Shown here: positions 12,613 to 57,520 of the stretch, piece after piece | How the letters are laid out: each line of letters begins with the position of its first letter | Numbering within the stretch: the stretch's first letter is position 1 | Assembly: GCA_963776915.1 (NCBI GenBank) | Contig: CAVZPE010000004.1 | Location: 513,812 to 577,811 of the forward strand | Reading direction: 5' to 3' | DNA: 64,000 bases | Origin: an uncultured Acidobacteriota bacterium | GTDB lineage: Bacteria; Acidobacteriota; Thermoanaerobaculia; UBA5066 | Notes under the pieces: model-generated | What the model saw: only the letters and a program-made list of their open reading frames with translations | Told to the model about the DNA's origin: nothing | Database searches by the model: none | Position numbers and translations under genes: made by a program

Positions 12613-12689
12613 TGGTGAGCCGTGTCGGACTCGAACCGACGACCCCCTGCTTAAAAGGCAGGTGCTCTAACCGACTGAGCTAACGGCCC
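12613..12689 (-). tRNA. tRNA-Lys (anticodon UUU), CCA encoded
   Basis: The reverse complement is GGGCCGTTAGCTCAGTCGGTTAGAGCACCTGCCTTTTAAGCAGGGGGTCGTCGGTTCGAGTCCGACACGGCTCACCA. It has anticodon loop CUUUUAA and a canonical D-arm and T-arm. Confidence 0.9.
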
Positions 12690-16833: not shown

Positions 16834-17088
16834 AAGAAGAGAGGAGAGGAAGAGGAAGAGGGAGATTTGCTGAGAGGGTCCCGAGCGGAGGCGCGGCCGG
16901 AGCGCTTCGGGCGGGCGGATCGCGAGGGCTCGGGCGATTGAAGATTTTCTTCGAAGGTGGTTAGAAAGGTCGAAAAGAACGGCGATGCCGCCGCGGCGAC
17001 CGGGCCTCTGTGCTTGCCGCCCGCACCGCGCACGGGACCATTCGAAGAAGTCTTCTCTTCCTCTTCCTTCTCCTCTTCTTGCTCTTCG
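16834..17088. repeat. Mosaic palindromic repeat, copy B (composite), bridging the two ArsA-like genes
   Basis: A polypurine run (16834-16860) is mirrored by a polypyrimidine run (17055-17088). The cores are GGAGATTTGCTGAGAGGG (16862), GAAGATTTTCTTCGAAGGTG (16941) and ACCATTCGAAGAAGTCTTC (17038). Two GC-rich loops lie between them. The minus-strand frame stays open ([37 protein letters not shown]). Confidence 0.8.
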
Positions 17089-35987: not shown

Positions 35988-36168
35988 CCGAAGAGCGACG
36001 AAGGAAGAAGAAAGAAGATTCTCTTAGAAGGTGAAGAGGGGCGTGGCTGAGTCGGGCGCCCCGCGTTTCGTGTTCGGCCTGCACGGCCCCGCGCTGGATG
36101 CGGAGGAGAGGGCCTTTTTTTCGGCGCATCCGCCTCTCGGCTTCCTCCTGTTCAAGAGAAATCTTCAA
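35988..36168. repeat. Repeat copy C: polypurine arm plus forward core (35988-36042), with the partner reverse core at 36143-36168
   Basis: The left arm is CCGAAGAGCGACGAAGGAAGAAGAAAGAAGATTCTCTTAGAAGGTGAAGAGGGG and contains the nagZ GTG start. The partner TTCAAGAGAAATCTTCAATCGCCC matches copy B (reverse complement TTCGAAGAAAATCTTCAATCGCCC). Native NagZ N-terminal codons lie between the two cores. Confidence 0.65.
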
Positions 36169-37149
36169 TCGCCCTCACAAGTCGTGTCGCTGATCGAGGA
36201 GCTGCGAGGGCTCGGGGGGGCGGGAGCGGCGCCCGCCTCCGCGGGCGCCGCTCCCGCCCCGCTCCTCTTCGTGGACCAGGAGGGCGGGACCGTGGACCGC
36301 ATCGGCCCGCTCCTCGGCGTTCCGTTCGCGTCGGCCGCGGCCTGCGCGGAGGCCGGGACGGACCGCGTGCACGAGAACGCGTACCTCATGGGCCGGGCCG
36401 CGCGCCTCCTGGGATTCGACGTGGACTTCGCGCCCTGCCTCGACCTCGGGCAGCCCGGCGCGGGCGCGGTCGTCCTCGAGGGCCGGTGCTTCGGCTTCCA
36501 CGCCGAGGACGTCGTGATCGGCGGGATGGTCTTTCTCCACGGCCTCGCGCGCGCGGGCCTCGCGACCTGCGTCAAGCACTTCCCGGGTCTCGGGCGCGGC
36601 GCGGTGGACTCGCACGCGAAGCTGCCCGTCGTGGACGCGCACGACGTCGACCTCATGGTCACGGACGTCGCGCCCTTCGCGAAGCTCGGCCGCGGGGCCG
36701 ACGGGGTCATGGTCGGCCACGCGGCGTACCCCGGCTTCGAGAACGGAGCGATCGTGCCGGCGTCGCTCTCGCCGCGGATCCACGGAATCCTGCGCGGACC
36801 CGTCCGCTTCGAGGGCGTCGTCTACTCGGACGACCTCGAGATGAACGCTCTCGAGGGGACGCTGCCCGAGCGCGCCGAGCGCGCCGCGGCCGCCGGCTGC
36901 GACGTCGTGATCCTCTCGAGGACGTTCGAGGCCTACGCCGAGGCGGTCGCCCGCGTGGACGCCCTCGGCCCCGATGCCGCCCGCGCCGGGCGTCTCGACG
37001 CCCTCCGCCGCCGCGTCGCGGGCGCCCCGCGCCCGCGGTTCACCGAGGAGGCCTGGGCGAAGCTCGCGGAAGAGGCGGCAGCGTTCGGGGAGTTGATGTC
37101 GAAGCCGAGAGAGAAGAGAAGAGACGAAGACTTCGGAAGATTTTCTTAG
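36031..37149 (+). CDS. nagZ: Beta-N-acetylhexosaminidase (GH3, NagZ-like)
   Basis: This is an intact 372-aa ORF. LDAEERAFFSAHPPLGFLLFKRN, DQEGGTV and KHFPGLG are GH3 N-terminal domain motifs. The last 16 codons and the TAG stop lie in repeat D. Confidence 0.85.
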   Translation: MKRGVAESGAPRFVFGLHGPALDAEERAFFSAHPPLGFLLFKRNLQSPSQVVSLIEELRGLGGAGAAPASAGAAPAPLLFVDQEGGTVDRIGPLLGVPFASAAACAEAGTDRVHENAYLMGRAARLLGFDVDFAPCLDLGQPGAGAVVLEGRCFGFHAEDVVIGGMVFLHGLARAGLATCVKHFPGLGRGAVDSHAKLPVVDAHDVDLMVTDVAPFAKLGRGADGVMVGHAAYPGFENGAIVPASLSPRIHGILRGPVRFEGVVYSDDLEMNALEGTLPERAERAAAAGCDVVILSRTFEAYAEAVARVDALGPDAARAGRLDALRRRVAGAPRPRFTEEAWAKLAEEAAAFGELMSKPREKRRDEDFGRFS

Positions 37150-37370
37150 AAGGGAGAAGAGAGGAAAGAGGAAGATTCTTCTGCTAAGAGCGGCCGCTTC
37201 TCGCGGCCGCTCCGGAACGAATCTGTGCGCGCGCCGGGCTGTCAAGGGCGCGCTTCGCGCGCCGCGTAGCGGCCGAAGGCCCTTGACAGCGCGCCGCGCG
37301 CCCATCTTTCCTCGGCGGCGGCTGCGCATGCAGCCGCCGATAGCAGAAGAAATCTTCTCTTCTTCTCTCT
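37106..37370. repeat. Mosaic palindromic repeat, copy D (long form), between convergent nagZ and ssb
   Basis: The outer arms are GAGAGAGAAGAGAAGAGACGAAGA and TCTTCTCTTCTTCTCTCTTC. The cores are GAAGATTTTCTTAGAAGGGA (37136), GGAAGATTCTTCTGCTAAGAGC (37170) and GCAGAAGAAATCTTCT (37343). The interior hairpins are GCGGCCGC-TTCTC-GCGGCCGC, CTGTCAAGGGC...GCCCTTGACAG and CGGCGGCTGC-GCAT-GCAGCCGCCG. Confidence 0.85.
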
Positions 37371-37796
37371 TCAGAACGGGACGTCGTCGTCCGCGTCGCC
37401 GCCCTCCGGCGCCTCCGGCGCCGCAGCAGTGACGCCCGAGCTGGAGCCCGCGTCGGGCCGGCCGCCGAGCATCTTCATGTCGCGGGCCTTGATCTCCGTC
37501 GCATAGCGCTTCTGCCCGGACTCCTTGTCGTCCCAGCTGCGCGTCTGCAGCGAGCCCTCGATGTAGACGAGGCGGCCCTTCGACAGGTAGCGCTCGCAGA
37601 TGCTCGCGAGCTTGTCGAAGGCGATGACCGTGTGCCATTCGGTCTTCTCCTGCTTCTGCCCGCTGGCGCGGTCGTTCCACGTCTCGGTCGTCGCGACCCT
37701 CAGGCGCGCGATGGGGACGCCGCCGGTCGTGGCGCGCATCTCGGGGTCGGCGCCCAGGTGGCCGATCAGGATGACTTTGTTGACAGAACCAGCCAT
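37371..37796 (-). CDS. ssb: Single-stranded DNA-binding protein
   Basis: A 141-aa protein starts at the internal ATG 37796 of ORF 37371-39446. The sequence is NKVILIGHLGADPEMR..EKTEWHTVIAF with the acidic tail DADDDVPF. Confidence 0.9.
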   Translation of the reverse strand: MAGSVNKVILIGHLGADPEMRATTGGVPIARLRVATTETWNDRASGQKQEKTEWHTVIAFDKLASICERYLSKGRLVYIEGSLQTRSWDDKESGQKRYATEIKARDMKMLGGRPDAGSSSGVTAAAPEAPEGGDADDDVPF

Positions 37797-45978: not shown

Positions 45979-46817
45979 ATGAAACGCGCTCTCCTCGCCT
46001 CCGCGCTCCTCCTCGCCGCCTCCCGCCTCCGCGCAGACGCGCGTGACGTGCGGCACGGTCGACGCGCTCGAGGTGACGTCCCTGACGCGGACGAGGGTCA
46101 CCGCCTTTCTCCGGACGAAACTTCCGGACGCGCCCGCCGGCGCGAAGAGTTTCTTCGAAGGGAAGATCGAGCTGGCGAACACGATCCTGCCGGTCGGGCA
46201 GCCGGTGACGTTGCTCGTGCAGCACGTTGCGGAGGGCCACGAGGCCGTCTTCCTCGTCGATCTCGAGCTGTCCCGGGTTCCCGCCGAGCTCGTCGCACGA
46301 CTCCATTCCGCCGCGCTCGATTTCACGCTCGAAGGAAATCTCCGGACCTCCGCCGGCGCGACGCCGCACCCCGTGTGCGCCGCCGGCGTCCTGCGCGTCG
46401 GGACGAACGACATCCGGGCGGTGGGCCCCGTCGGCCAGGACTTCGCGAGGTTCTCCGGCGTGCGCTTCGCGCGGAATCTCCCTCGCCGAGACGCAGGGCG
46501 AGGCGTCCGTGGTCATCTACAACCCGCTGTCCTTCGCGCTCGACGTCAAGGACCTCGTGTACGAGATCCGCGCCGGCGACCGCAGGGTGGCGTCCGGCGA
46601 GCGCCACGGGATCCGGATCTACCCCGGCCGCGAGACTTCCGTCGACCTCCCGGTCGTCGCGGGCAATGCCGACCTCGCCGCCGCCCTCGCGGGCGCCGCC
46701 CTTTCGGGCGGGCGCGTCGAGGGACGGCTCGTCGCGACGATCTCCGTGAAGGTCGGAAAGGACCAGGTCATGACCGTTCCGCTCAACCTCCCCGGGGCGA
46801 TCCAGGTGGTGCCGTGA
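45979..46817 (+). pseudogene. LEA_2 / WHy-like lipoprotein, two frame changes (about 46040 and about 46480)
   Basis: The pieces are MKRALLASALLLAAS.. (ORF 45979), TCGTVDALEVTSLTRTRVTAFLRTKL.. (ORF 46043) and ETQGEASVVIYNPLSFALDVKDLVYEIRAGDRRVASG..MTVPLNL (ORF 46227). The family call is by eye. Confidence 0.45.
46144..46343. repeat. Inverted core pair inside the LEA_2 gene
   Basis: GAAGAGTTTCTTCGAAGGGAAG lies at 46144 (coding KSFFEGK). GCTCGAAGGAAATCTCC lies at 46327 (coding LEGNL). Both are AT-rich patches in GC-rich coding sequence, in forward-then-reverse orientation. Confidence 0.5.
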
Positions 46818-47614
46818 GCGCCCCGAAGATCCTGCTCGAGAAGTCGCCCTCCGACCCGCGCGTCGCGCGCCTCGTCCTCAACCGGCCCGAGACCCGCAAC
46901 GCCTGGGACGGCGAGACCGTCTCGCTGCTGCAGCGCGCGCTCCGCGACCTCGCCTCGGACGAGTCCGTGCGCGTCGTCGAGCTCTCGGGCGAGGGGCCGG
47001 CCTTCTGCGCGGGCGCCGATCTCGACTGGATGAAGCGTGTCGCGAATTTCACGATGGAGGAGAACCGGCGCGACTCGGCGGAGCTCGCGCAGCTCTTCCG
47101 GGCGCTCGACGAGCTCGACAAGCCCGTCGTCGCGCGCGTGCAGGGCGCCGCGCTCGGCGGCGGGACCGGCCTCGTCGCCGCGTGCGACGTCGTCGTCGCG
47201 GCCGAGGGCGCGGTCTTCGGGACGACGGAGGTGCGCCTCGGGATCATCCCGGCCGTGATCTCGCCCTACGTGGTCCGCAAGATCGGCGCGTCGCACGCGC
47301 GCGCGTGGTTCCTGACGGGCGAGCGGGTCGGAGCCGAGGAGGCGCGCCGCGTCGGCCTCGTCCACCACGTCGTCCCGGAGCAGGATCTCGGCAAGGCCAC
47401 GAAGGCCGTGATCGACGCGATCCTCCTGGGCGGGCCCGCGGCCGTGGTCGAGGCCAAGCGCCTCGTCCACACGGTGTCGACCCTGCCCCTGCGCGAGGCG
47501 ACCGCCTGGGCCGTCCAGCGGATGGCGGAGCGGCGCGGCTCGCACGAGGGCCTCGAAGGCCTGAAGGCCTTTCTCGAGAAGCGGCCCGCGAGCTGGACGA
47601 CGAAGGGCTCGTGA
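46814..47614 (+). CDS. liuC: Enoyl-CoA hydratase (methylglutaconyl-CoA hydratase-like)
   Basis: The GTG at 46814 overlaps the upstream stop (GTGA). The crotonase motifs are FCAGADL and GAALGGGTGLVAACD. Confidence 0.8.
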   Translation: MSAPKILLEKSPSDPRVARLVLNRPETRNAWDGETVSLLQRALRDLASDESVRVVELSGEGPAFCAGADLDWMKRVANFTMEENRRDSAELAQLFRALDELDKPVVARVQGAALGGGTGLVAACDVVVAAEGAVFGTTEVRLGIIPAVISPYVVRKIGASHARAWFLTGERVGAEEARRVGLVHHVVPEQDLGKATKAVIDAILLGGPAAVVEAKRLVHTVSTLPLREATAWAVQRMAERRGSHEGLEGLKAFLEKRPASWTTKGS

Positions 47615-49600
47615 CGCGCGGGCGGCCCTTCCGGCGCGTCCTCGTCGCGAACCGCGGCGAGATCGCAGTGCGCGTCGTCCGCGGCTGCCGCGCGGCGGGC
47701 CTCGCGTCGGTGGCCGTGTACTCCGAGGCGGACCGGAACGCGCGCCACGCCGCGCTCGCCGACGACGCCGTCGAGATCGGCCCGGCGCCGGCCCGGGAGA
47801 GCTACCTCTCGATCCCGAGGCTCCTCGCGGCGGCGAAGAGCGACGGGCTGCGACGCCGTGCATCCCGGCTACGGCTTCCTGTCGGAGAACGCGGACTTCG
47901 CGCGCGCGGTCGAGGAGGCGGGGCTCGTCTGGATCGGCCCTCCGCCCGAGGCGATGGAAGCGATGGGGAGCGAAGATCGCATCGCGAGAGAACGGATGAG
48001 AGCGGCCGGCGTCCCCGTCGTGCCCGGCGCGCTCATCGCCGGGTTCGAAGAGGACGAAGAGAGAGAGAAGATTTCTTCGAATGGTAAAGAGGGCGGGGCG
48101 CGCGGTGGCGCCGCTCGGCGCGCGGCGGGGCAGCCCGCAACCTCTGGCACCTTCAAAGAAATCTCTTCTTCTTCTTCCTCTTCCTTCAAAGAAATTCTCT
48201 CTCTGGGTCTTCCCGTCGTCGTCAAGGCTTCGGCGGGAGGCGGCGGCAAGGGGATGAGGGTCGTCCGCTCGTCTGCGGAACTCTCCGAAGCCATTTCTTC
48301 CTGCCGCCGCGAGGCGGCGGCGGCGTTCGGGGACGCGACCGTTTACGTCGAGAAGTACCTCGAGAATCCGCGCCACGTGGAGGTCCAGGTCTTCGGCGAC
48401 TGGCACGGCAACGTCGTCGCGATCGGCGAGCGCGAGTGCTCGCTCCAGAGGCGTCACCAGAAGGTCGTCGAGGAGTGCCCGTCTCCGGCCGTGACGCCGG
48501 AGCTGCGCGCGCGCCTCCTGAAGGCCGCCGTCGACGCCGCGAAGGCGGTCGGCTACGTGAACGCCGGGACGGTGGAGTTCCTCCTCGCGCCCTCGGGCGA
48601 GTTCCATTTCCTCGAGATGAACACGCGCCTGCAGGTCGAGCACCCGGTCACCGAGGAGGCTTTCGGCGTGGACCTCGTCCTCCTCCAGCTCGCCGTCGCG
48701 GCGGGGGAGAAGCTGCCGCCTCTCCCGTCCGTCCCGATCCGCCATGCGATCGAGGCGCGGGTCTACGCGGAGGATCCCGAGGCGGGGTTCCTGCCTCAGG
48801 CGGGGCGCGTCCTCCTCTATCGCGAGCCCTCGGGACCCGGCGTGCGGGTGGAGTCCGGCCTGGCCGAGGGCCAGGACGTCGGCGTCCACTACGACCCGCT
48901 GCTCGCGAAGGTCGTCGCCTCCGGCGCGACGCGCGACGAGGCCCGGCGGCGCCTCGTCGGCGCTCTCGGGGAGACGGTGATCCTCGGCGTCTCGACGAAC
49001 GTCTCGTGGCTGCGCCGGCTCCTCGAGACGCCCGAGGTCGCAGCGGGGGCGATCCACACGGGCCTCCTCGAGACTCTCCCCGTGCCCGCGCCTCCGGCGC
49101 CGCCCGACGAGGCGTTCGCGGCGGCCGCGGCGGCGCTCGTCCGGAGCGGCGCCCTCCGGTCCCGGCGGTCCCGTCCTCGCCGACCCATTCGACGGCCGGT
49201 TCCGGACCGGAGGCGGCGCGTGAGGCTCCGCGAGGCGGCGACGGGGGCGTCGCGCGAGGTCCGTCCCGGCGGGATGCCGCGCGGAGCCTTCGCCGCGCGG
49301 GACGGCGAGGTCGCGTGGGTCTTCCTCGGCGGCGAGACGTGGCGCATCTCGAAGGCGCCGGCCCGGGCCGCCCGCGCGGCGGAGGAGGAGCACGCCCTCA
49401 CCGCTCCGATGCCGGGCAGGGTCTCGGCCGTGCGCGTGTCCGACGGGCAGGCCGTGGAGAAGGGCGAGGTCCTCGTCGTGCTCGAGGCCATGAAGATGGA
49501 GCACGCCGTGAGGGCCCCGCGAGCCGGAATCGTCGCGCGACTCGCCGCCGAGCCCGGGAAGATGGTGGGGCTCGGGGACGTTCTCCTCGACGTCACATGA
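47611..49600 (+). pseudogene. mccA: Methylcrotonyl-CoA carboxylase alpha subunit (biotin carboxylase + BCCP), about 3 frame changes plus an in-frame repeat insertion
   Basis: The GTG at 47611 forms a GTGA overlap. It carries FRRVLVANRGEIAVRV (ORF 47182), HPGYGFLSEN..KASAGGGGKGMRVV..EMNTRLQVEHPVTE and the biotinyl site EAMKME (ORF 47858). The frame changes lie near 47850, 49145 and 49215. Confidence 0.85.
48044..48203. repeat. Palindromic repeat, copy E, in-frame inside mccA
   Basis: The left arm is GAAGAGGACGAAGAGAGAGAGAAGATTTCTTCGAATGGT. A GC-rich loop follows. The right arm is CACCTTCAAAGAAATCTCTTCTTCTTCTTCCTCTTCC, and CCTTCAAAGAAAT is duplicated. The translation is EEDEEREKISSNGKEGGARGGAARRAAGQPATSGTFKEISSSSSSSFKEILS. 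Confidence 0.85.
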
Positions 49601-51682: not shown

Positions 51683-51689
51683 TCCGGGG

Positions 51690-51862
51690 CTTTCGGATTT
51701 CGGATTTCGGATTTCTTAGAAGGGTGAGTGGGGCTGCGGCTCGACCGCCGGCGCGGCGGTCACTCGGCCGCCTCGATCCCTCTTCACCTTCTAAGCAATC
51801 CTCGGGTCCTCGCTTTCCCTCTTCCTCCCCTCATTCGAAGAAATTCTCCTTTCCGATATCCT
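51690..51862. repeat. Repeat copy F upstream of valS, preceded by a 7-nt tandem repeat (ATTTCGG x3-4)
   Basis: The tandem tract is CTTTCGG ATTTCGG ATTTCGG ATTTCTT. The forward core is TTAGAAGGGTGAGTGGGG, followed by a hairpin loop (GACCGCC-GGCGC-GGCGGTC). The reverse core is CCCTCTTCACCTTCTAAG, followed by a polypyrimidine run and CTCATTCGAAGAAATTCTC. Confidence 0.8.
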
Positions 51863-51871
51863 CGGCAGCCT

Positions 51872-54532
51872 GTGAAGGAGCTCGAGAAGACCTTCGACCC
51901 GTCCACCTTCGAGATGCGCTGGTACAAGGCGCAGGAGGAGGCCGGTGTCTTCCGTCCCGAGTCCGCCGGCCGGGACGCCGAGCCGTTCACGATCGTGATC
52001 CCGCCGCCGAACGTCACGGGGCGGCTGCACGTCGGTCACGCGCTCGGGCGGACGCTCGAGGACGTCCTGTGCCGCTGGCGCCGCATGCAGGGGCGCGCCG
52101 TCCTCTGGGTCCCCGGCGTCGACCACGCCGGCATCGCGACGCAGATGGTCGTCGAGCGCGACCTGAGGGAACGGACGGGCCAGTCGCGCCACGACCTCGG
52201 CCGCGACGCGTTCGTCGCGCTCTGCCGCGAGTGGGCGGACGCGCGCCGCGGAGACATCCTCGACCAGATCCGGCGGCTCGGCTGCTCGTGCGACTTCACC
52301 CGCGAGTACTACACGCTCGACGCGATCCGCTCGCGCGCCGTCCGCTTCGCGTTCACGACGCTCTACGAGCAGGGCCTCGCCTATCGCGCCGAGCGGCTCG
52401 TGAACTGGTGCCCGAGCTGCGCGACCGTCCTCTCCGACCTCGAGGTGAACCACGTCGAGACGTCCGGGCACCTGTGGTCGATCGCGTACCCCGTGGTGGG
52501 CGGCGGGGAGGTCGTCGTCGCGACGACGCGGCCCGAGACGATGCTCGGCGACACCGCGGTCGCCGTGCACCCCGACGACGAGCGCTACGCCGGCGCTCGT
52601 CGGCAAGCGCGTGACGCTTCCGCTGACGGGCCGGACCATCCCGGTGATCGCCGATTCCTTCGTGGAGAGGGAGTTCGGGACGGGGATCGTCAAGGTGACG
52701 CCCGCGCACGATCCGAACGACTTCGAGGCGGGCAGGCGCCACGGGCTCGACCTCGTGACCGTCATCGGGTTCGACGGCCGGATGACGCCGGCCGCCGGCG
52801 CCGCGTACGCGGGCCTCGAACGCGCCGAGGCGCGCAAGAAGGTCCTGCGGGACCTCGAGGCGCAGGGCCTGCGCCGGGGCGAGAAGAGCCACCTCGTGCC
52901 GCTCGCGCGCTGCCAGAGGTGCGACACGATCGTCGAGCCGCTCGTCTCGATCCAGTGGTTCGTGAAGATCGGCCCTCTCGCCGCCAAGGCGGTCGAGGCG
53001 ACGGAGAGGCGGGAGACGACCTTCACGCCCGAGCTCTGGAAGAAGACCTACGACGAGTGGATGCGGAACATCCGCGACTGGTGCATCTCGCGCCAGCTCT
53101 GGTGGGGACACGAGATCCCGGCCTGGTACTGCCCGGACGGCCACGTGAACGTCCCGAAGCCGGGCGCGGACGACCCCACGGCGTGCGCGACGTGCGGCTC
53201 GGCCGCCCTCGTGCGCGACCCGGACGTGTTCGACACGTGGTTCTCGTCGTGGCTCATGCCGCTCTCCGTGTTCGGCTGGCCCGCGAAGACGGCGGACTTC
53301 GAGCGCTTCTATCCGACGAGCGTTCTCGTGACGGGCTTCGACATCCTCTTCTTCTGGGTGGCCCGGATGATCATGGCCGGCACCTGGTTCGACGGGCGGG
53401 CGCCCTTCCGGGACGTGGTCCTGCACGGCCTCGTGCGCGACGAGAAGGGCCAGAAGATGTCGAAGACGAAGGGCAACGTCGTCGACCCGCTCGAGATGTG
53501 CGACGAGTTCGGGGCGGACGCCGTGCGGTTCACGCTCGCCGTCCTGTCCGGCACGGGCCGCGACCTCCCGTTCGGCAAGTCGCGCGTCGCGGGTTACCGC
53601 GGCTTCGCGACGAAGGTCTGGAACGCCGCGCGCTTCGCGCTGCCCCTGATCTCGGAAGGAGCGTGCGTGGACGCGCTCGAGTTCCGTTCCCTCTCCACGG
53701 TCGACCGCTGGATCCTCGCGCGGTTCTCGGACGCCGCGAGCCGCGTGGGCGCGTCCCTCGAGGCCTGCCGCTTCGACGAGGCGGCGCACGCGCTCTACCA
53801 GTTCTTCTGGTCCGAGTTCTGCGACGGCTACGTCGAGATGATCAAGCCGGTCCTCCGCGGCGCCGACGTGCCGGAGGCCGAGAAGGCGCGGACGCGCGGC
53901 GTCCTCAAGCGGGTGCTCCTCGACTCGCTCGCGCTCCTGCATCCGTTCATGCCGTTCGTGTCCTGCGAGATCCGCGAGGCGCTGAACGGGGACGGCCTCG
54001 GCCTCGCGACGGCGAAGTTCCCCGAGCCGGACCCCGACTGGAAGGACGACGCGGCGGTGAGGTGGTCGAGACTCCTGCGGGCGATCGTGACGCGAGTCCG
54101 GAACCTGCGCGCCGAGCACGGCCTCGCGCAGACCGAGGCGCTCGCGGTCGGCCTCGAGCTCCCGCAGGACCCCTTTCAGAGGGAAATGCGGCGTCACGTC
54201 CCGCTCCTGAGCCATCTCGCGCGGCTCAGCGCCGTGGAGATTTCTTCGAGGTGGAATTGGCCCGGAGCGCATCGCGACGTCGTCGCGGAGATCGGGATCG
54301 TCGTCGAATTGCCTTCGAAGAGAGATTTCTTCCGAAGACAGGGAGAAGCTGCGAGCGCGACGTGGAGCGCCTGCGCGCCGAGGCGGCGAAGATCAGAGCG
54401 CGGCTGGCCGACCAGAGCTTCCTCGCGCGCGCTCCCGCACCCGTTGTCGCGAAGACGAAGCAGCAGCTCGAAGAAATCTCCGAACGGATCGCGCGGCTCT
54501 CCGGCAACCTCGTGGGGACTCCGGACCGGTGA
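51872..54532 (+). pseudogene. valS: Valyl-tRNA synthetase, two or more frame changes (about 52590 and about 54340)
   Basis: The GTG at 51872 gives MKELEKTFDPSTFEMRWY. The sequence carries PPPNVTGRLHVGHAL (HIGH motif), TRPETMLGDTAVAVHPDD, then ORF 52611 (GTGIVKVTPAHDPNDF..KMSKTKGN, the KMSKS motif). The coiled-coil tail returns to the first frame. Confidence 0.9.
54237..54340. repeat. Inverted core pair G inside the valS C-terminal region (a further core lies at 54466-54480)
   Basis: GAGATTTCTTCGAGGTGGAATTGG lies at 54237. GAATTGCCTTCGAAGAGAGATTTCTTCCGAAGA lies at 54305. They flank native-looking codons (PGAHRDVVAEIGIVV). The second valS frame change lies at the right core. Confidence 0.6.
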
Positions 54533-55354: not shown

Positions 55355-56155
55355 ATGGAGGCCCCGGAGCTCGACGAGTCCACGTACGCGACGAGAGTCG
55401 AGGACGCCTTCATCGCCGAGCGCGGCACGCCCTTCCTCCTCTCGCCGAAGGACTGGACGCTCATCCGCGGCTGGCGCGAGGGCGGGATCCCGGTGGACAC
55501 CGTGGTCCGGGCCGTGCGGGAGGCGTTCGAGAAGCGGCGCGCGCGCGGCCAGGCCGGCAAGATCTCGTCCATCGCGTACTGCGCGAACGCCGTCGAGGAG
55601 CTCTGGGAGATGGAGCGCCGGGGCCTCGTGGGCAAGGCCCACGAGGCCCCCCCGGCGGGCGCGAACGCGCCCGCGAGAGGAGAGAAGTCTCTTGCTTTGC
55701 TCTCGGATCGTCTGCGCGCGATGAGCGACGCTCTCGCGACCATGGACGGCGCTGAAGATCTTCTTAGAAGGGTGAGTGGGGCCGGGGCGGCGGGCAGCGC
55801 CGGTGCGGCTCCTCGAGCGGAGGGCGCCCCAAACACCTTCGAAGAAATCCCCCTCTTCTCGTCCCTCCGAAAGTCGCTGAGCTCCGCCGCCTCGAAGATC
55901 GAGGCGCTGCCGCGCGATCTTTCATTCGAAGAATCCGAAGAGAAGCTCTCCGTGATCGAGGCGTCGCTCGTGAAGTCGGCCCTCCGCGTCCTGCCGTCCG
56001 AGCAGCAGGCTCTCGTCGAATCCCGCGTGTCCTCCGCCCTCGGCGACGTCGCCGGCGTGTCGCCCGCGGTCGTCGAGCGGATGCGCCGGGCGCTCACGCG
56101 CCGCGAGGTGCGCCTGCTCCTCGGCCTGCCGGCCCTCACGCTCCTCCATGGCTGA
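55355..56155 (+). CDS. Hypothetical protein with a conserved N-terminal domain; the C-terminal half carries repeat H
   Basis: This is an intact 266-aa ORF. The N-terminus AFIAERGTPFLLSPKDWTLIRGWREGGIPVDTVVRAV looks like a conserved uncharacterised family that I cannot name. Confidence 0.55.
   Translation: MEAPELDESTYATRVEDAFIAERGTPFLLSPKDWTLIRGWREGGIPVDTVVRAVREAFEKRRARGQAGKISSIAYCANAVEELWEMERRGLVGKAHEAPPAGANAPARGEKSLALLSDRLRAMSDALATMDGAEDLLRRVSGAGAAGSAGAAPRAEGAPNTFEEIPLFSSLRKSLSSAASKIEALPRDLSFEESEEKLSVIEASLVKSALRVLPSEQQALVESRVSSALGDVAGVSPAVVERMRRALTRREVRLLLGLPALTLLHG
55754..55860. repeat. Palindromic repeat, copy H, in-frame inside the 55355 gene (an extra core lies at 55919-55940)
   Basis: The forward core is GAAGATCTTCTTAGAAGGGTGAGTGGGG, and its last 22 nt are identical to copy F. 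A GC loop follows. The reverse core is CACCTTCGAAGAAATCCCCCTCTTCTC. The translation is EDLLRRVSGAGAAGSAGAAPRAEGAPNTFEEIPLFS. Confidence 0.8.
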
Positions 56156-57520
56156 GGTCCGCCCGGGCGACGCCCTCGAGGCTCTCGTCGAGCGCGTCGT
56201 GCCCGGGGGCGAGGGGCTCGCGCGAACGGAGGGCGTCGTGACGCTCGTGGCGGGCGGCCTGCCGGGGGACCGCGTCCGGCTGCGGGTGGAGGACGCGTCT
56301 CCCCGCCTCATCCGGGGTCGCGCGGAGGAGATTCTCGAGGCGGGCGAGGCGCGCCGCCCGGACGCCGACGTCTGCGGCCTCGCGCGGAGCGGCGCCTGCG
56401 GCGGCTGCGACTGGCCCGCTGCGCGGCCGGAGCACCATCGCGCGCTCAAGACCGAGCTCGTCCTCGACGCGCTGCGGCGGCTCGGCGGCCTCACCGCGGC
56501 CGACCTGCCCGAGCCGCGCTGGCTGGGTTCCCCGCCGAACTACCGCCTCCGCAACCGGCTGCACCTCGACCGCGAGGGGCGCCTCGGCTTCTTCGCGCCC
56601 CGCTCGAAGGCGGTCGCGGACCTCGAGGGCTGCCAGATCGTGTCGAAGCCCTTCCTGGAGCGGCTCCCGGCGCTCCGGGACCACCTTCGCTCGATGGGGC
56701 CGATGGAAGGGGAGCTCTTGACCCTGGAGTCGCGCGACGGGAAGACCCTGCTCGGCGAGTTGCGGCTCTCGGCGGGTGACGGTCTGCAAATTTCTTCGAA
56801 GGTGAAAGAGAGAGGGAGAGGGCCGTTCGACGGGTTTCGCGTCGTCGATGCGGGTGGGCGGCTGCTCGCCTCGGACGGTCCCTCGTCGCTTTCCATCGAG
56901 GCAGGCGGCGCCTCGTTCGACGTGCCGGTGTCTTCCTTCTTTCAAGGAAATCTCTTTCTCCTCGATTCGTTCCTCGAGGAGATCCGGACGGCGCTTCGCG
57001 CCGGAAGAGAAGAGAAGATTTTCCTAGAAGGGAAGAGGGGGGAGGCGCGCGCTTGCGCGCCGTGGATCTCTATGCGGGCGTCGGGTTCATGACGCGCCCT
57101 CTCCTGGAGCTCGCGGCCGAGATGGGAGGCGGCGAGGTGACGGCCGTCGAGATCGACCCGGCGTCGTCCCATTCACTTTCAAAGAATCTTCAGGCCTGGC
57201 AGAAGGAGGGCCTGCCCCTCGCGCGCTCGATCCGAGCCTCCGCTGAATCCTTCTTCCACTCGAAGAAATCCGAATCTTCGGTCTCTCTTCTCCTCGCGGA
57301 CCCTCCGCGCGCCGGCCTGTCGCCCGAGGTGCGGAAGGGGCTCCTGCGGCTCGCGCCGCCGCGCGTCCTGATGGTGTCCTGCGACCCGCCGACGCTCGCC
57401 CGCGACCTCGCGGCGCTGAAGGAGCGCTACGCGGTGACGCGCCTGACGCTCCTCGACCTCTTCCCGCAGACCCACCACGTCGAGACGGTGGCCTTGCTCG
57501 CCGCGCGTCCGATCGGATAG
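56148..57520 (+). pseudogene. 23S rRNA (uracil-5-)-methyltransferase RlmD/RumA-like (TRAM, Fe-S Cys cluster, SAM MTase), one frame change near 57040
   Basis: ORF 56148 carries CGLARSGACGGCDW and SSFFQGN. ORF 57053 carries VDLYAGVGFM, LLADPPRAGL, MVSCDPPTLARDL and DLFPQTHHVETV. The join falls in repeat I-3 at a G6 run. Confidence 0.8.
56788..57293. repeat. Cluster I: five core copies inside the rlmD-like gene
   Basis: The five cores are AAATTTCTTCGAAGGTGAAAGAGAGAGGGAGAGGG (56788), CTTCTTTCAAGGAAATCTC (56936), GAAGAGAAGAGAAGATTTTCCTAGAAGGGAAGAGGGGGG plus the GGCGCGC-GCTT-GCGCGCC hairpin (57004-57060), CTTTCAAAGAATCTTCAG (57175) and CCACTCGAAGAAATCCGAATCTTCGGTCTCTCTTCTCC (57256). Confidence 0.7.

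Follow-up and report, generated by a model that had tools for sequence, protein, structure and literature searches.

Why does a roughly 160-base palindrome lie in frame inside a gene for leucine breakdown, and is it a recent arrival, an inherited feature, or an artifact? The question arises from a 64,000-nucleotide stretch of DNA of an uncultured Acidobacteriota bacterium (Thermoanaerobaculia; GCA_963776915.1, contig CAVZPE010000004.1, positions 513,812 to 577,811), hereafter the window. An earlier note, based on the sequence alone, described the palindrome as an in-frame insert in the biotin carboxylase gene mccA and likened it to Rickettsia palindromic elements (RPEs). The observation is confirmed, and the sequence and translation given in the note are correct. 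Its interpretation is only partly supported: a repeated palindromic element read through in frame in a central metabolic enzyme is RPE-like behavior, but the palindrome is an old, inherited member of a lineage-wide family of paired DNA motifs.

The host gene (47611..49208, + strand) encodes a methylcrotonyl-CoA carboxylase (MCC) alpha-type biotin carboxylase (BC), followed by BCCP at 49232-49597. Biotin_carb_N, ATP-grasp, and Biotin_carb_C domains are recognized by Pfam, the P. aeruginosa MCC alpha subunit (3u9s) is matched with an E value of 2e-141, and the top Foldseek hits of the predicted structure are MCC alpha subunits. A tblastn search with the proteins of L082 (L numbers denote recovered loci) and the syntenic loci place the gene in an operon with the order MccB-LEA_2-ECH-BC-BCCP-HMG-CoA lyase, where the neighbors are a carboxyltransferase, an enoyl-CoA hydratase, and HMG-CoA lyase, consistent with leucine catabolism. 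Pfam splits CPSase_L_D2 exactly at the palindrome. The expanded linker (48029..48202, + strand) comprises 58 codons between VPVVPG and LGLPVVVKA, and the palindrome itself (48047-48204) lies in frame between VPVVPG and LGLPVVVKASAGGGGKGM. 3u9s has 11 residues where this ORF has 52, outgroup orthologues have a 15-16-residue linker against 62 here, and the nearest outgroup and all solved structures fall between 11 and 18 residues. The excess is therefore about 41-47 residues. In the structural model, pLDDT is below 50 for residues 50-108 of the ORF, whereas the core is confident, which places the additional residues in a predicted disordered loop at the start of the ATP-grasp lid (B) domain.

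The palindrome is imperfect. Its inverted arms are 48047-48068/48162-48183 (22 nt, 82% complementary) and 48062-48081/48185-48204 (20 nt, 85%). The arms contain 40-48% G+C in a 72% G+C window and share a 13-nt core, ATTTCTTCGAAGG, which occurs 12 times in the window with up to 2 mismatches, against 0.02 expected. An outer purine-rich tract of the left arm (GAAGAGGACGAAGAGAGAGAGAAG, 48047..48070) is poorly conserved between orthologues (0.60 identity). It is followed by the left arm proper (48071..48093; nhmmer hit 48059-48092), which consists of the core ATTTCTTCGAATG and the inner arm GTAAAGAGGG and encodes (K)ISSNGKE. A G+C-rich center (48094..48139) separates it from right arm 1 (48140..48171; nhmmer hit 48141-48171), formed by ACCTCTGGCA and the core CCTTCAAAGAAAT and encoding TSGTFKEI. 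The same 21-mer of this arm occurs at the non-mcc loci L093, L094, and L097. A pyrimidine tract encoding a Ser run (48163..48182; GC skew -0.67) leads to right arm 2 (48180..48207; nhmmer hit), which overlies the helix preceding the VVVKA strand (residues 107-114 in the model). A 9-nt stretch of right arm 2 is specific to the window relative to L082 and L084. The earlier note reported a directly duplicated core at 48149 and 48183; CCTTCAAAGAAAT lies at 48150-48162 and 48183-48195, so the first position was one base off. This repeat is not a target-site duplication but a second copy of the right arm, overlying the native helix FKEILSLG.

The note also stated that the frame is preserved without a stop, which is true across the insert only. 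As assembled, the gene is read in three frames, owing to a one-base insertion at about 47844 (47844..47848, + strand; an extra base in GACGGGC), which splits the N-terminal domain between two frames, and a two-base deletion at about 49142 (49140..49144, + strand), which makes BC appear to run on towards BCCP, although relatives have separate BC and BCCP genes. These shifts could suggest that the palindrome is a mis-join or fold-back chimera, or that the gene is dead. However, about 10 such frame switches occur in the neighboring 20 kb, including in the essential gene for ValRS, which points to sequencing or assembly errors rather than decay. The same insert is also present in dozens of independent assemblies from JGI, ENA, and NCBI, in short-read k141-type contigs as well as in Mb-scale contigs with "contig_N" names. 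An artifact or pseudogene is therefore very unlikely.

A discrete insertion in this genome, as implied by the earlier note, is not supported either, and the insertion is neither private nor recent. The same insert, with a homologous center, is present in at least 41 of 120 Thermoanaerobaculia orthologue clusters, down to about 58% protein identity (cluster P0065). About 45 further clusters carry in-frame deletion derivatives, of which 10 are partial forms with different junctions and about 35 retain the right arm only. The short forms are nested among the full forms, indicating independent trimming on many occasions, although the roughly 26 presence/absence flips on the tree could partly reflect allele exchange or re-insertion at a retained arm. 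Every linker length in the 17 recovered loci is a multiple of 3. The note had proposed that an equally long, similar linker in orthologues across distant taxa would refute it, and the outcome is mixed: orthologues in other phyla and the nearest outgroup lack the long linker, whereas orthologues across the whole clade have it.

Two further points lay beyond the reach of the note. First, the arms are constrained at the nucleotide level. Across 10 orthologues, identity is 0.885 in the left arm and 0.852 in the right arm, against 0.61 in the center, which has diverged to the level of synonymous sites, 0.615 at flanking four-fold sites, and 0.77 over the whole CDS. Third codon positions of the left arm are 100% identical, against 0.85 at first and second positions, even though 62% of them are A/T against an 11% background and the codons are rare. 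Locus-specific arm variants are shared by orthologues, which argues for vertical inheritance under purifying selection rather than homogenization. This pattern bears on whether the long linker is a protein-level adaptation, such as a regulatory or interaction loop, with the palindrome as a side effect. The frame conserved in all orthologues and the helix encoded by the right arm, which precedes the nucleotide-binding strand, are compatible with that view. However, the peptide is predicted to be disordered and of low complexity, it has been lost or trimmed in about half of the clade, its third codon positions are better conserved than the first and second, and the same DNA motif is read in other frames in unrelated genes and also lies in spacers. 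A protein-level explanation is thus improbable.

Second, the same arms elsewhere arise by replacing native codons rather than by insertion. In LEA_2 (46144..46343), a left arm (46144-46166) and a right arm (46316-46343) replace G+C-rich codons in clade A only, without a change in length. In the TRAM/U5-methyltransferase gene (56779..57291), a left arm (56779-56811) pairs with a right arm lying on the catalytic FFQGN motif (56926-56974), with a second left arm at 57007-57040 and a right arm at 57250-57281. FFQGN is encoded TTC TTT CAA GGR AAT in 8-9 of 9 clade genomes, but TTC TTC CAG GCG AAC in the outgroup, again with no length change. Arm-like A/T-rich patches (EISSKV / KKEISSED) are found in the ValRS C-terminal region (54234..54348). 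Across genes, the left arm is read as ISS(K/N)(V/G) in three genes but as FFEG or LLRR in others, while the right arm is mostly read as TFEEI.

The remaining members in the window show the extent of the family. An intergenic member with a left arm, center, and two right arms lies between the response-regulator gene and ValRS (51689..51865), and an in-frame left arm, center, right arm, and second right arm occur in the gene between BirA and the methyltransferase (55746..55949), where the insert is absent in L082 and L083. A family palindrome of about 250 nt (z -5.6) is located inside an ArsA-like ATPase reading frame (16834..17087), and arm pairs (z -6.8) mark the start (35990-36183) and the end (37107-37381) of the glycosyl-hydrolase-3 gene (35990..37381). 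A profile of the arm (about 35 nt, consensus GAACGGAGAATTTCTTCGAAGGTGAAAGA) gives 14 hits in the window and 78 hits of at least 15 bits in 0.36 Mb of clade loci, but 0 in 1.43 Mb of MCC loci from other phyla and 0 in the syntenic outgroup L105. The control loci came from a scan of genome contigs with the protein alignment, which was saturated by ubiquitous biotin-carboxylase motifs and returned only distant phyla. Rfam assigned no family, with only sub-threshold miRNA-precursor-like hits to the hairpin. A scan of viral contigs with a 16-mer gave 69 single hits, about the number estimated by chance, and was uninformative. Literature searches for the motif, for Thermoanaerobaculia repeats, and for acidobacterial MITEs found nothing relevant.

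Some copies behave as if they were once mobile. The spacer before ValRS has a clean empty site in L083 and filled sites in five genomes, and the insert between BirA and the methyltransferase and the left arm at TRAM residue 290 are each present in some genomes and absent in others. Comparison of the filled and empty sites defines the ends as ATTTCTTAGAAGG ... TTCGAAGAAAT(TCTC), about 150-170 bp apart, in agreement with the terminal inverted repeats and size of a MITE (50-500 bp). However, no target-site duplication is present there, only a TTTC microhomology, and BLAST between window copies aligns only the arms and inner arms. No transposase with matching ends was found in the syntenic ~20-kb loci or in the eight ORFs scanned at window 12.7-19.4 kb, a small part of the genome; around the 14-18 kb copies, only purA, histidine ammonia-lyase, an ArsA-like ATPase, and an epimerase were recovered. 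A MITE origin is therefore an inference. A purely selfish, decaying relic that landed in frame in a tolerant loop would account for the small, palindromic unit, the polymorphism at other loci, the repeated deletions in mccA, and the synonymous rate at which its center evolves. Nevertheless, this explanation is unlikely, because the arms are more conserved than the enzyme's own coding sequence and because insertion cannot produce arms by codon replacement over native, even catalytic, sequence.

The arrangement of the arms offers additional clues. All nine window pairs are convergent (left arm then right arm) and 76-250 nt apart, in genes and spacers alike. This geometry, with 20-35-bp inverted repeats of shared consensus, would also fit intragenic invertons, in which a recombinase flips the enclosed segment and recodes the protein. 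However, the distinct inner-arm sequences have the same orientation (left TGGTAAAGAGG, right CCTCTGGCACC) in all 10 full mccA orthologues, some pairs enclose essential native sequence (TRAM, ValRS) where inversion would destroy the protein, and no recombinase was seen in the loci examined, which makes invertons very doubtful. Alternatively, the arms may be copies of a short genome-wide signal kept or spread site by site, such as a motif resembling a DNA uptake sequence or HIP1, or the binding site of a nucleoid or regulatory protein, with pairing incidental. The in-place origin in LEA_2, ValRS, and TRAM, the conservation at orthologous positions in coding DNA, and the sharply defined core, in which 13 positions carry most of the information and which is the most over-represented k-mer in the window, speak for this view. 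The almost invariable occurrence as convergent pairs rather than as independent single sites, the extra DNA with G+C-rich centers in the mccA, BirA-methyltransferase, and intergenic copies, and a density of about 1 per 4.6 kb, lower than that of classical uptake sequences, speak against it, and it is considered unlikely.

As RNA, 48036-48216 folds into one long hairpin of -80.6 kcal/mol, only modestly better than shuffled sequence (z -2.4; 6 of 200 shuffles fold as well). The arms close the minimum-free-energy fold in mccA, LEA_2, and TRAM, and in the 20-bp TRAM stem 95% of cells are paired across 10 orthologues, against 54-79% when the partner columns are slid. However, RNAalifold on 10 mccA inserts and pair counting on the TRAM stem show conserved pairing with almost no compensatory change, because both arms are invariant, so that pairing itself is not proven to be the selected property. 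G.U and A.C mismatches are balanced in mccA, and the G.U excess in TRAM is confounded by coding constraint; these counts do not discriminate between RNA and DNA.

Taken together, the palindrome is best explained, with a confidence of roughly 0.55 for the explanation as a whole, as one member of a family of paired inverted arms found only in this Thermoanaerobaculia lineage, and it is probably a selected nucleic-acid feature rather than junk. The analysis establishes that the unit of left arm, G+C-rich center, and right arm entered the biotin carboxylase gene once, before the clade diversified, that it has been inherited vertically and trimmed many times, that an open frame runs through it in every orthologue recovered, that the extra residues, predicted to form a disordered loop, are dispensable because many orthologues have lost them, that the arm nucleotides are held constant far beyond what coding requires, and that the same arms are written over native codons in other genes. 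Translation of the element into protein, its beginning as a mobile, MITE/RPE-like palindrome, and the status of the added peptide as a tolerated by-product are inferred. Also inferred is that the arms persist because the two arms of a pair act together as a signal, most likely by base-pairing into a long hairpin in the mRNA or in single-stranded DNA, or alternatively by binding a sequence-specific factor; no function, whether in RNA processing or stability, pausing, topology, or recombination, has been demonstrated. A bolder and more tentative reading is that the signal, a sequence-specific long-range hairpin or a two-site protein target, is lineage-wide and selected, and is installed by these bacteria inside coding sequences in two ways, by inserting extra in-frame DNA, as in mccA, or by recoding native codons, including a catalytic motif. 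In this view, the mccA palindrome would be a functional cis-element embedded in an enzyme gene and the 45-residue loop its by-product.

In-frame palindromic repeats are textbook only for Rickettsia, where they are treated as selfish DNA that proteins happen to tolerate. Here, the same behavior appears in an unrelated, G+C-rich, free-living phylum, with repeat ends that are conserved more strictly than the enzyme carrying them and that are written over native codons elsewhere. If this holds genome-wide, it is a clear case of a second, non-protein code layered on coding sequence in bacteria, and the natural deletion series in a well-understood enzyme would give a tractable system that could show what such embedded hairpins do. 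In practice, it also warns annotators that 40-50-residue low-complexity loops in these MAG proteins are repeat-derived.

Among known systems, RPEs (Ogata et al. 2000, as summarized in PMC10969869) are likewise palindromic repeats of about 100-150 bp that are dispersed in the genome, inserted in frame in unrelated metabolic genes and read through, shared by related species at orthologous sites, and located where the added peptide is compatible with the fold. In-frame members without a stop occur here in mccA, the gene between BirA and the methyltransferase, TRAM, and the ArsA-like gene. The host, however, is a 72% G+C free-living acidobacterial lineage, so the resemblance is a functional analogy and not membership; only the arms are shared between copies, the arms are under nucleotide-level constraint, and they are also written over native codons without insertion, which is not known to have been described for RPEs. 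Bacterial MITEs that fuse in frame with host ORFs (intragenic ERIC, Coxiella QMITE, and Anabaena MITEs; PMC10969869, PMC5896051) are similarly small, A/T-richer elements with terminal inverted repeats, presence/absence polymorphism, possible hairpins in transcripts, and occasional in-frame fusions. The present copies differ in having no detectable target-site duplication, no homologous internal sequence, and no parent IS identified in the loci searched, and in being very old and orthologous with conserved ends. REP/REPIN elements mobilized by RAYT transposases (PMC3733652) are also short conserved palindromic units that occur as inverted, hairpin-forming pairs, are vertically inherited and long-lived, and have proposed roles in mRNA stability and DNA topology. 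However, REPs are extragenic, 20-40 nt, and tagged with GTAG or CGTC, whereas the arms described here carry no such tag, are frequent inside genes, and are separated by long and variable spacing. Finally, the DNA uptake sequences of Haemophilus (USS) and Neisseria (DUS) and cyanobacterial HIP1 share with the arms a short, lineage-specific, over-represented motif that is found in coding DNA, arises in place by substitution, is conserved at orthologous positions, and sometimes occurs as inverted pairs, but here the unit is a convergent pair, even inside genes, some copies carry extra DNA, and the density is lower.

The window has a G+C content of 72.1%, and the observation in the earlier note of a palindrome at 48044-48203 holds, with the sequence and its translation exactly as the note gave them. 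A repeat search found inverted arms at 48047-48068/48162-48183 (22 nt, 82% complementary) and 48062-48081/48185-48204 (20 nt, 85%), together with the direct repeat CCTTCAAAGAAAT at 48150-48162 and 48183-48195. The arms are 40-48% G+C and display a strong purine/pyrimidine asymmetry. As RNA, the region folds into one long imperfect hairpin of -80.6 kcal/mol, which is only modestly better than shuffled sequences (z -2.4). The real evidence against chance is recurrence, as the 13-mer, allowing up to 2 mismatches, occurs 12 times in the window against 0.02 expected. The only Rfam matches in the window are two tRNA genes at 777-850 and 12616-12689 (minus strand). No Rfam family and no paper in the literature searched describes this motif.

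The host gene contains Biotin_carb_N, CPSase_L_D2/ATP-grasp, Biotin_carb_C, and Biotin_lipoyl domains according to Pfam. Its best solved relative is the P. aeruginosa MCC alpha subunit (3u9s, E 2e-141), in which 11 residues (140-152) correspond to 52 residues of the query (58-111). Foldseek comparison of the structural model also ranks MCC alpha subunits first. The neighbors are typical of leucine catabolism and include a carboxyltransferase, a LEA_2 protein, an enoyl-CoA hydratase, the biotin carboxylase (BC), BCCP, and HMG-CoA lyase. The LEA_2 (WHy-type) gene, at 45983-46810 in the window, is an unusual operon member and is conserved between the carboxyltransferase and the enoyl-CoA hydratase throughout this clade (loci L081-L090 of the relatives).

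As assembled, the BC gene is broken by a +1 indel at about 47844, compensating +1/+2 indels at 47972/47991, and a -2 indel at about 49142. A tblastn search with the proteins of the closest relative shows about ten such frame switches in 20 kb, including in ValRS. Relative to intact orthologues, the switches at 37800-59500 fall in LEA_2, BC, HMG-CoA lyase, ValRS, the TRAM methyltransferase, ComEC, and a hypothetical gene (other examples are 46470, 50194, 50441, 52590, about 57000, and about 57640). An artefact is one of the rival explanations for the palindrome. The frame switches are read here as errors of an uncorrected, indel-prone assembly and not as gene decay, and ORF-based annotation of this contig will be unreliable. 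At 49155-49600, BC appears to run on into the biotinyl (BCCP) domain in one ORF. However, this apparent fusion follows a 2-nt deletion, and in nine relatives BC and BCCP are separate, overlapping, intact genes. Only P0065/L104, an orthologue cluster and its locus, has a true fusion.

The insert is not private to this genome. The closest proteins are from Thermoanaerobaculia MAGs, and many of them carry a homologous insert in the alignment, ...EEHEEKISSNGKE-[variable, Arg/Ala/Gly-rich]-PAASGTFEEI.... The linker was classified in all 120 cluster representatives. Of these, 41 have the full form (at least 45 residues), including P0065 at 58% identity, whose DNA shows a left arm, a center, and a right arm. 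Ten have partial forms with many different junctions, for example KISLNG|TFKEI and KIS|FKEI, and about 35 keep only the right-arm-encoded SGTF(K/E)EILSLG. In contrast, all the more distant orthologues have a native linker of 15-16 residues, (S/T)HDLSPEGLAxVG. In the orthologue protein P0050, the linker carries two left-arm peptides in tandem (KISASERERGETKISSNAEEG), which indicates local duplication of an arm. On NJ trees, the short forms are nested among the full ones, and the centers of the full forms are alignable across subclades. Thus, the simplest history is one old gain followed by many in-frame deletions, although some allele exchange cannot be excluded. Every linker in the 17 recovered DNA loci is a multiple of three in length.

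The mccA palindrome belongs to a dispersed, lineage-specific family. Low-G+C islands in the window almost all carry the same motif, and an nhmmer model built from the arms converges on GAACGGAGAATTTCTTCGAAGGTGAAAGA, with most of its information in ATTTCTTCGAAGG. At a score of at least 15 bits, the model finds 78 arms in 0.36 Mb of clade DNA, whereas none is found in 1.43 Mb of MCC loci from other phyla or in the syntenic outgroup locus L105. The family is denser than this count suggests, as additional A/T-third-position islands with arm-like cores (TTTCAAAGAAT, TTTCGAAGAAT) that the model missed lie at 57162-57204 and at column 362 of the TRAM alignment (HSLSKNLS). In the window, the arms always come as convergent pairs (left arm then right arm) separated by 76-250 nt, and they lie both in spacers and inside reading frames. 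An inverton is a rival reading of such pairs that is judged unlikely. The copies share only the arms and inner arms, not the centers. A family palindrome of about 250 nt at 16834-17087 (RNA fold z -5.6) lies inside open frames that match an ArsA-like ATPase on the minus strand and may be another in-frame intragenic copy.

The spacer between the response-regulator gene and ValRS (RR|ValRS) has a clean empty site in L083, the locus of one relative (GGATTCGG|CTTTCCGATATCC), against filled sites in five genomes. This comparison places the element ends at the 13-nt core, with no target-site duplication. At 51690-51712, three tandem copies of GGATTTC directly abut the left end of this intergenic element, while relatives have one copy. 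This could be slippage at the element junction or a trace of the insertion mechanism. Additionally, the insert in the gene between BirA and the methyltransferase and a single left arm at TRAM residue 290 are each present in some genomes and absent in others.

The arms are constrained at the nucleotide level. Across ten full mccA inserts, mean pairwise nucleotide identity is 0.885 in the left arm and 0.852 in the right arm, but 0.61 in the center and 0.60 in the outer tracts. For comparison, it is 0.615 at four-fold sites of the next 200 codons (0.555 between clades; chance 0.41) and 0.77 over the whole coding sequence. By codon position, the left arm is 0.85, 0.85, and 1.00 identical. Third positions are therefore invariant, although 62% of them are A or T against a background third-position A+T of 11%. 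A scan of 11 genes in 9 genomes shows that the A/T-third-position islands (0.40-0.68) are largely the arm sites. One such island across orthologues lies in conserved native BC sequence at 48279-48302, 100 nt downstream of the insert, where A/T-ending codons (GAA GCC ATT TCT TCC, encoding EAISSC) contain a left-arm-like ATTTCTTCC that may be another arm written in place. Orthologues also share locus-specific arm variants, GAATGGTAAAG in mccA and GAAGGTGAAAG in TRAM, which indicates vertical inheritance under purifying selection rather than homogenization between copies. This constraint counts against the rival reading of a neutral relic.

In other genes, the arms are written over native codons. 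In the TRAM/U5-methyltransferase gene, the partner of the left arm lies on FFQGN, a catalytic motif of RumA-type methyltransferases. This motif is encoded TTC TTT CAA GGR AAT CTC TTT in 8-9 of 9 clade genomes, whereas the arm-free outgroup has TTC TTC CAG GCG AAC CGG TTC. In LEA_2, clade A has AAG ATT TTC TTC GAA GGG AAG ATC and, 60 codons downstream, CTC GAA GGA AAT CTC. Clade B and the outgroup have G+C-rich codons at both places, and the left-arm replacement involves no indel. ValRS shows the same pattern, EISSKV against VVAPKV. Simple insertion cannot produce this, which needs either selection, a drive for the motif, or short-patch conversion. An uptake-sequence-like or protein-site motif is a further rival explanation.

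In the minimum-free-energy folds of mccA, TRAM, and LEA_2, the two arms pair and close the domain. In the 20-bp TRAM stem, 95% of cells are paired across ten orthologues, against 54-79% for slid controls. However, compensatory change is almost absent because both arms are invariant, and the G.U versus A.C asymmetry is uninformative. These data therefore do not distinguish selection on pairing from selection on the sequence itself, or RNA from DNA as the relevant molecule. At the protein level, the AlphaFold model of the window ORF has a confident ATP-grasp core, while residues 50-108, the insert, have pLDDT below 50. The second right arm encodes the helix (107-114) that leads into the VVVKA strand. 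The insert therefore sits in the loop that enters the lid (B) domain and is predicted to be a floppy surface excursion. A protein-level role for the loop is another rival reading, but the natural deletion series shows that the insert is dispensable.

Taken together, the favored reading, at a confidence of 0.55, is that the element is an old palindromic repeat, possibly once mobile, whose paired arms are now maintained as a nucleic-acid signal, and that the extra peptide is a tolerated by-product. The age of the mccA insert, its repeated trimming, the open frame, and the conservation of the arms are regarded as shown, whereas translation of the insert, past mobility, the signal role of the arms, and the by-product status of the peptide are inferred.

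The interpretation in the earlier note, which called this RPE-like behavior in a central metabolic enzyme, is partly supported. The label describes the behavior well (RPE features as summarized in PMC10969869), but membership in RPE, MITE, or REP families is not established. There is no target-site duplication, the copies share no internal sequence, no transposase was found in the loci and reading frames scanned, and there is no GTAG or CGTC tag. The strict conservation of the arms and their creation in place go beyond what is known to have been described for RPEs.
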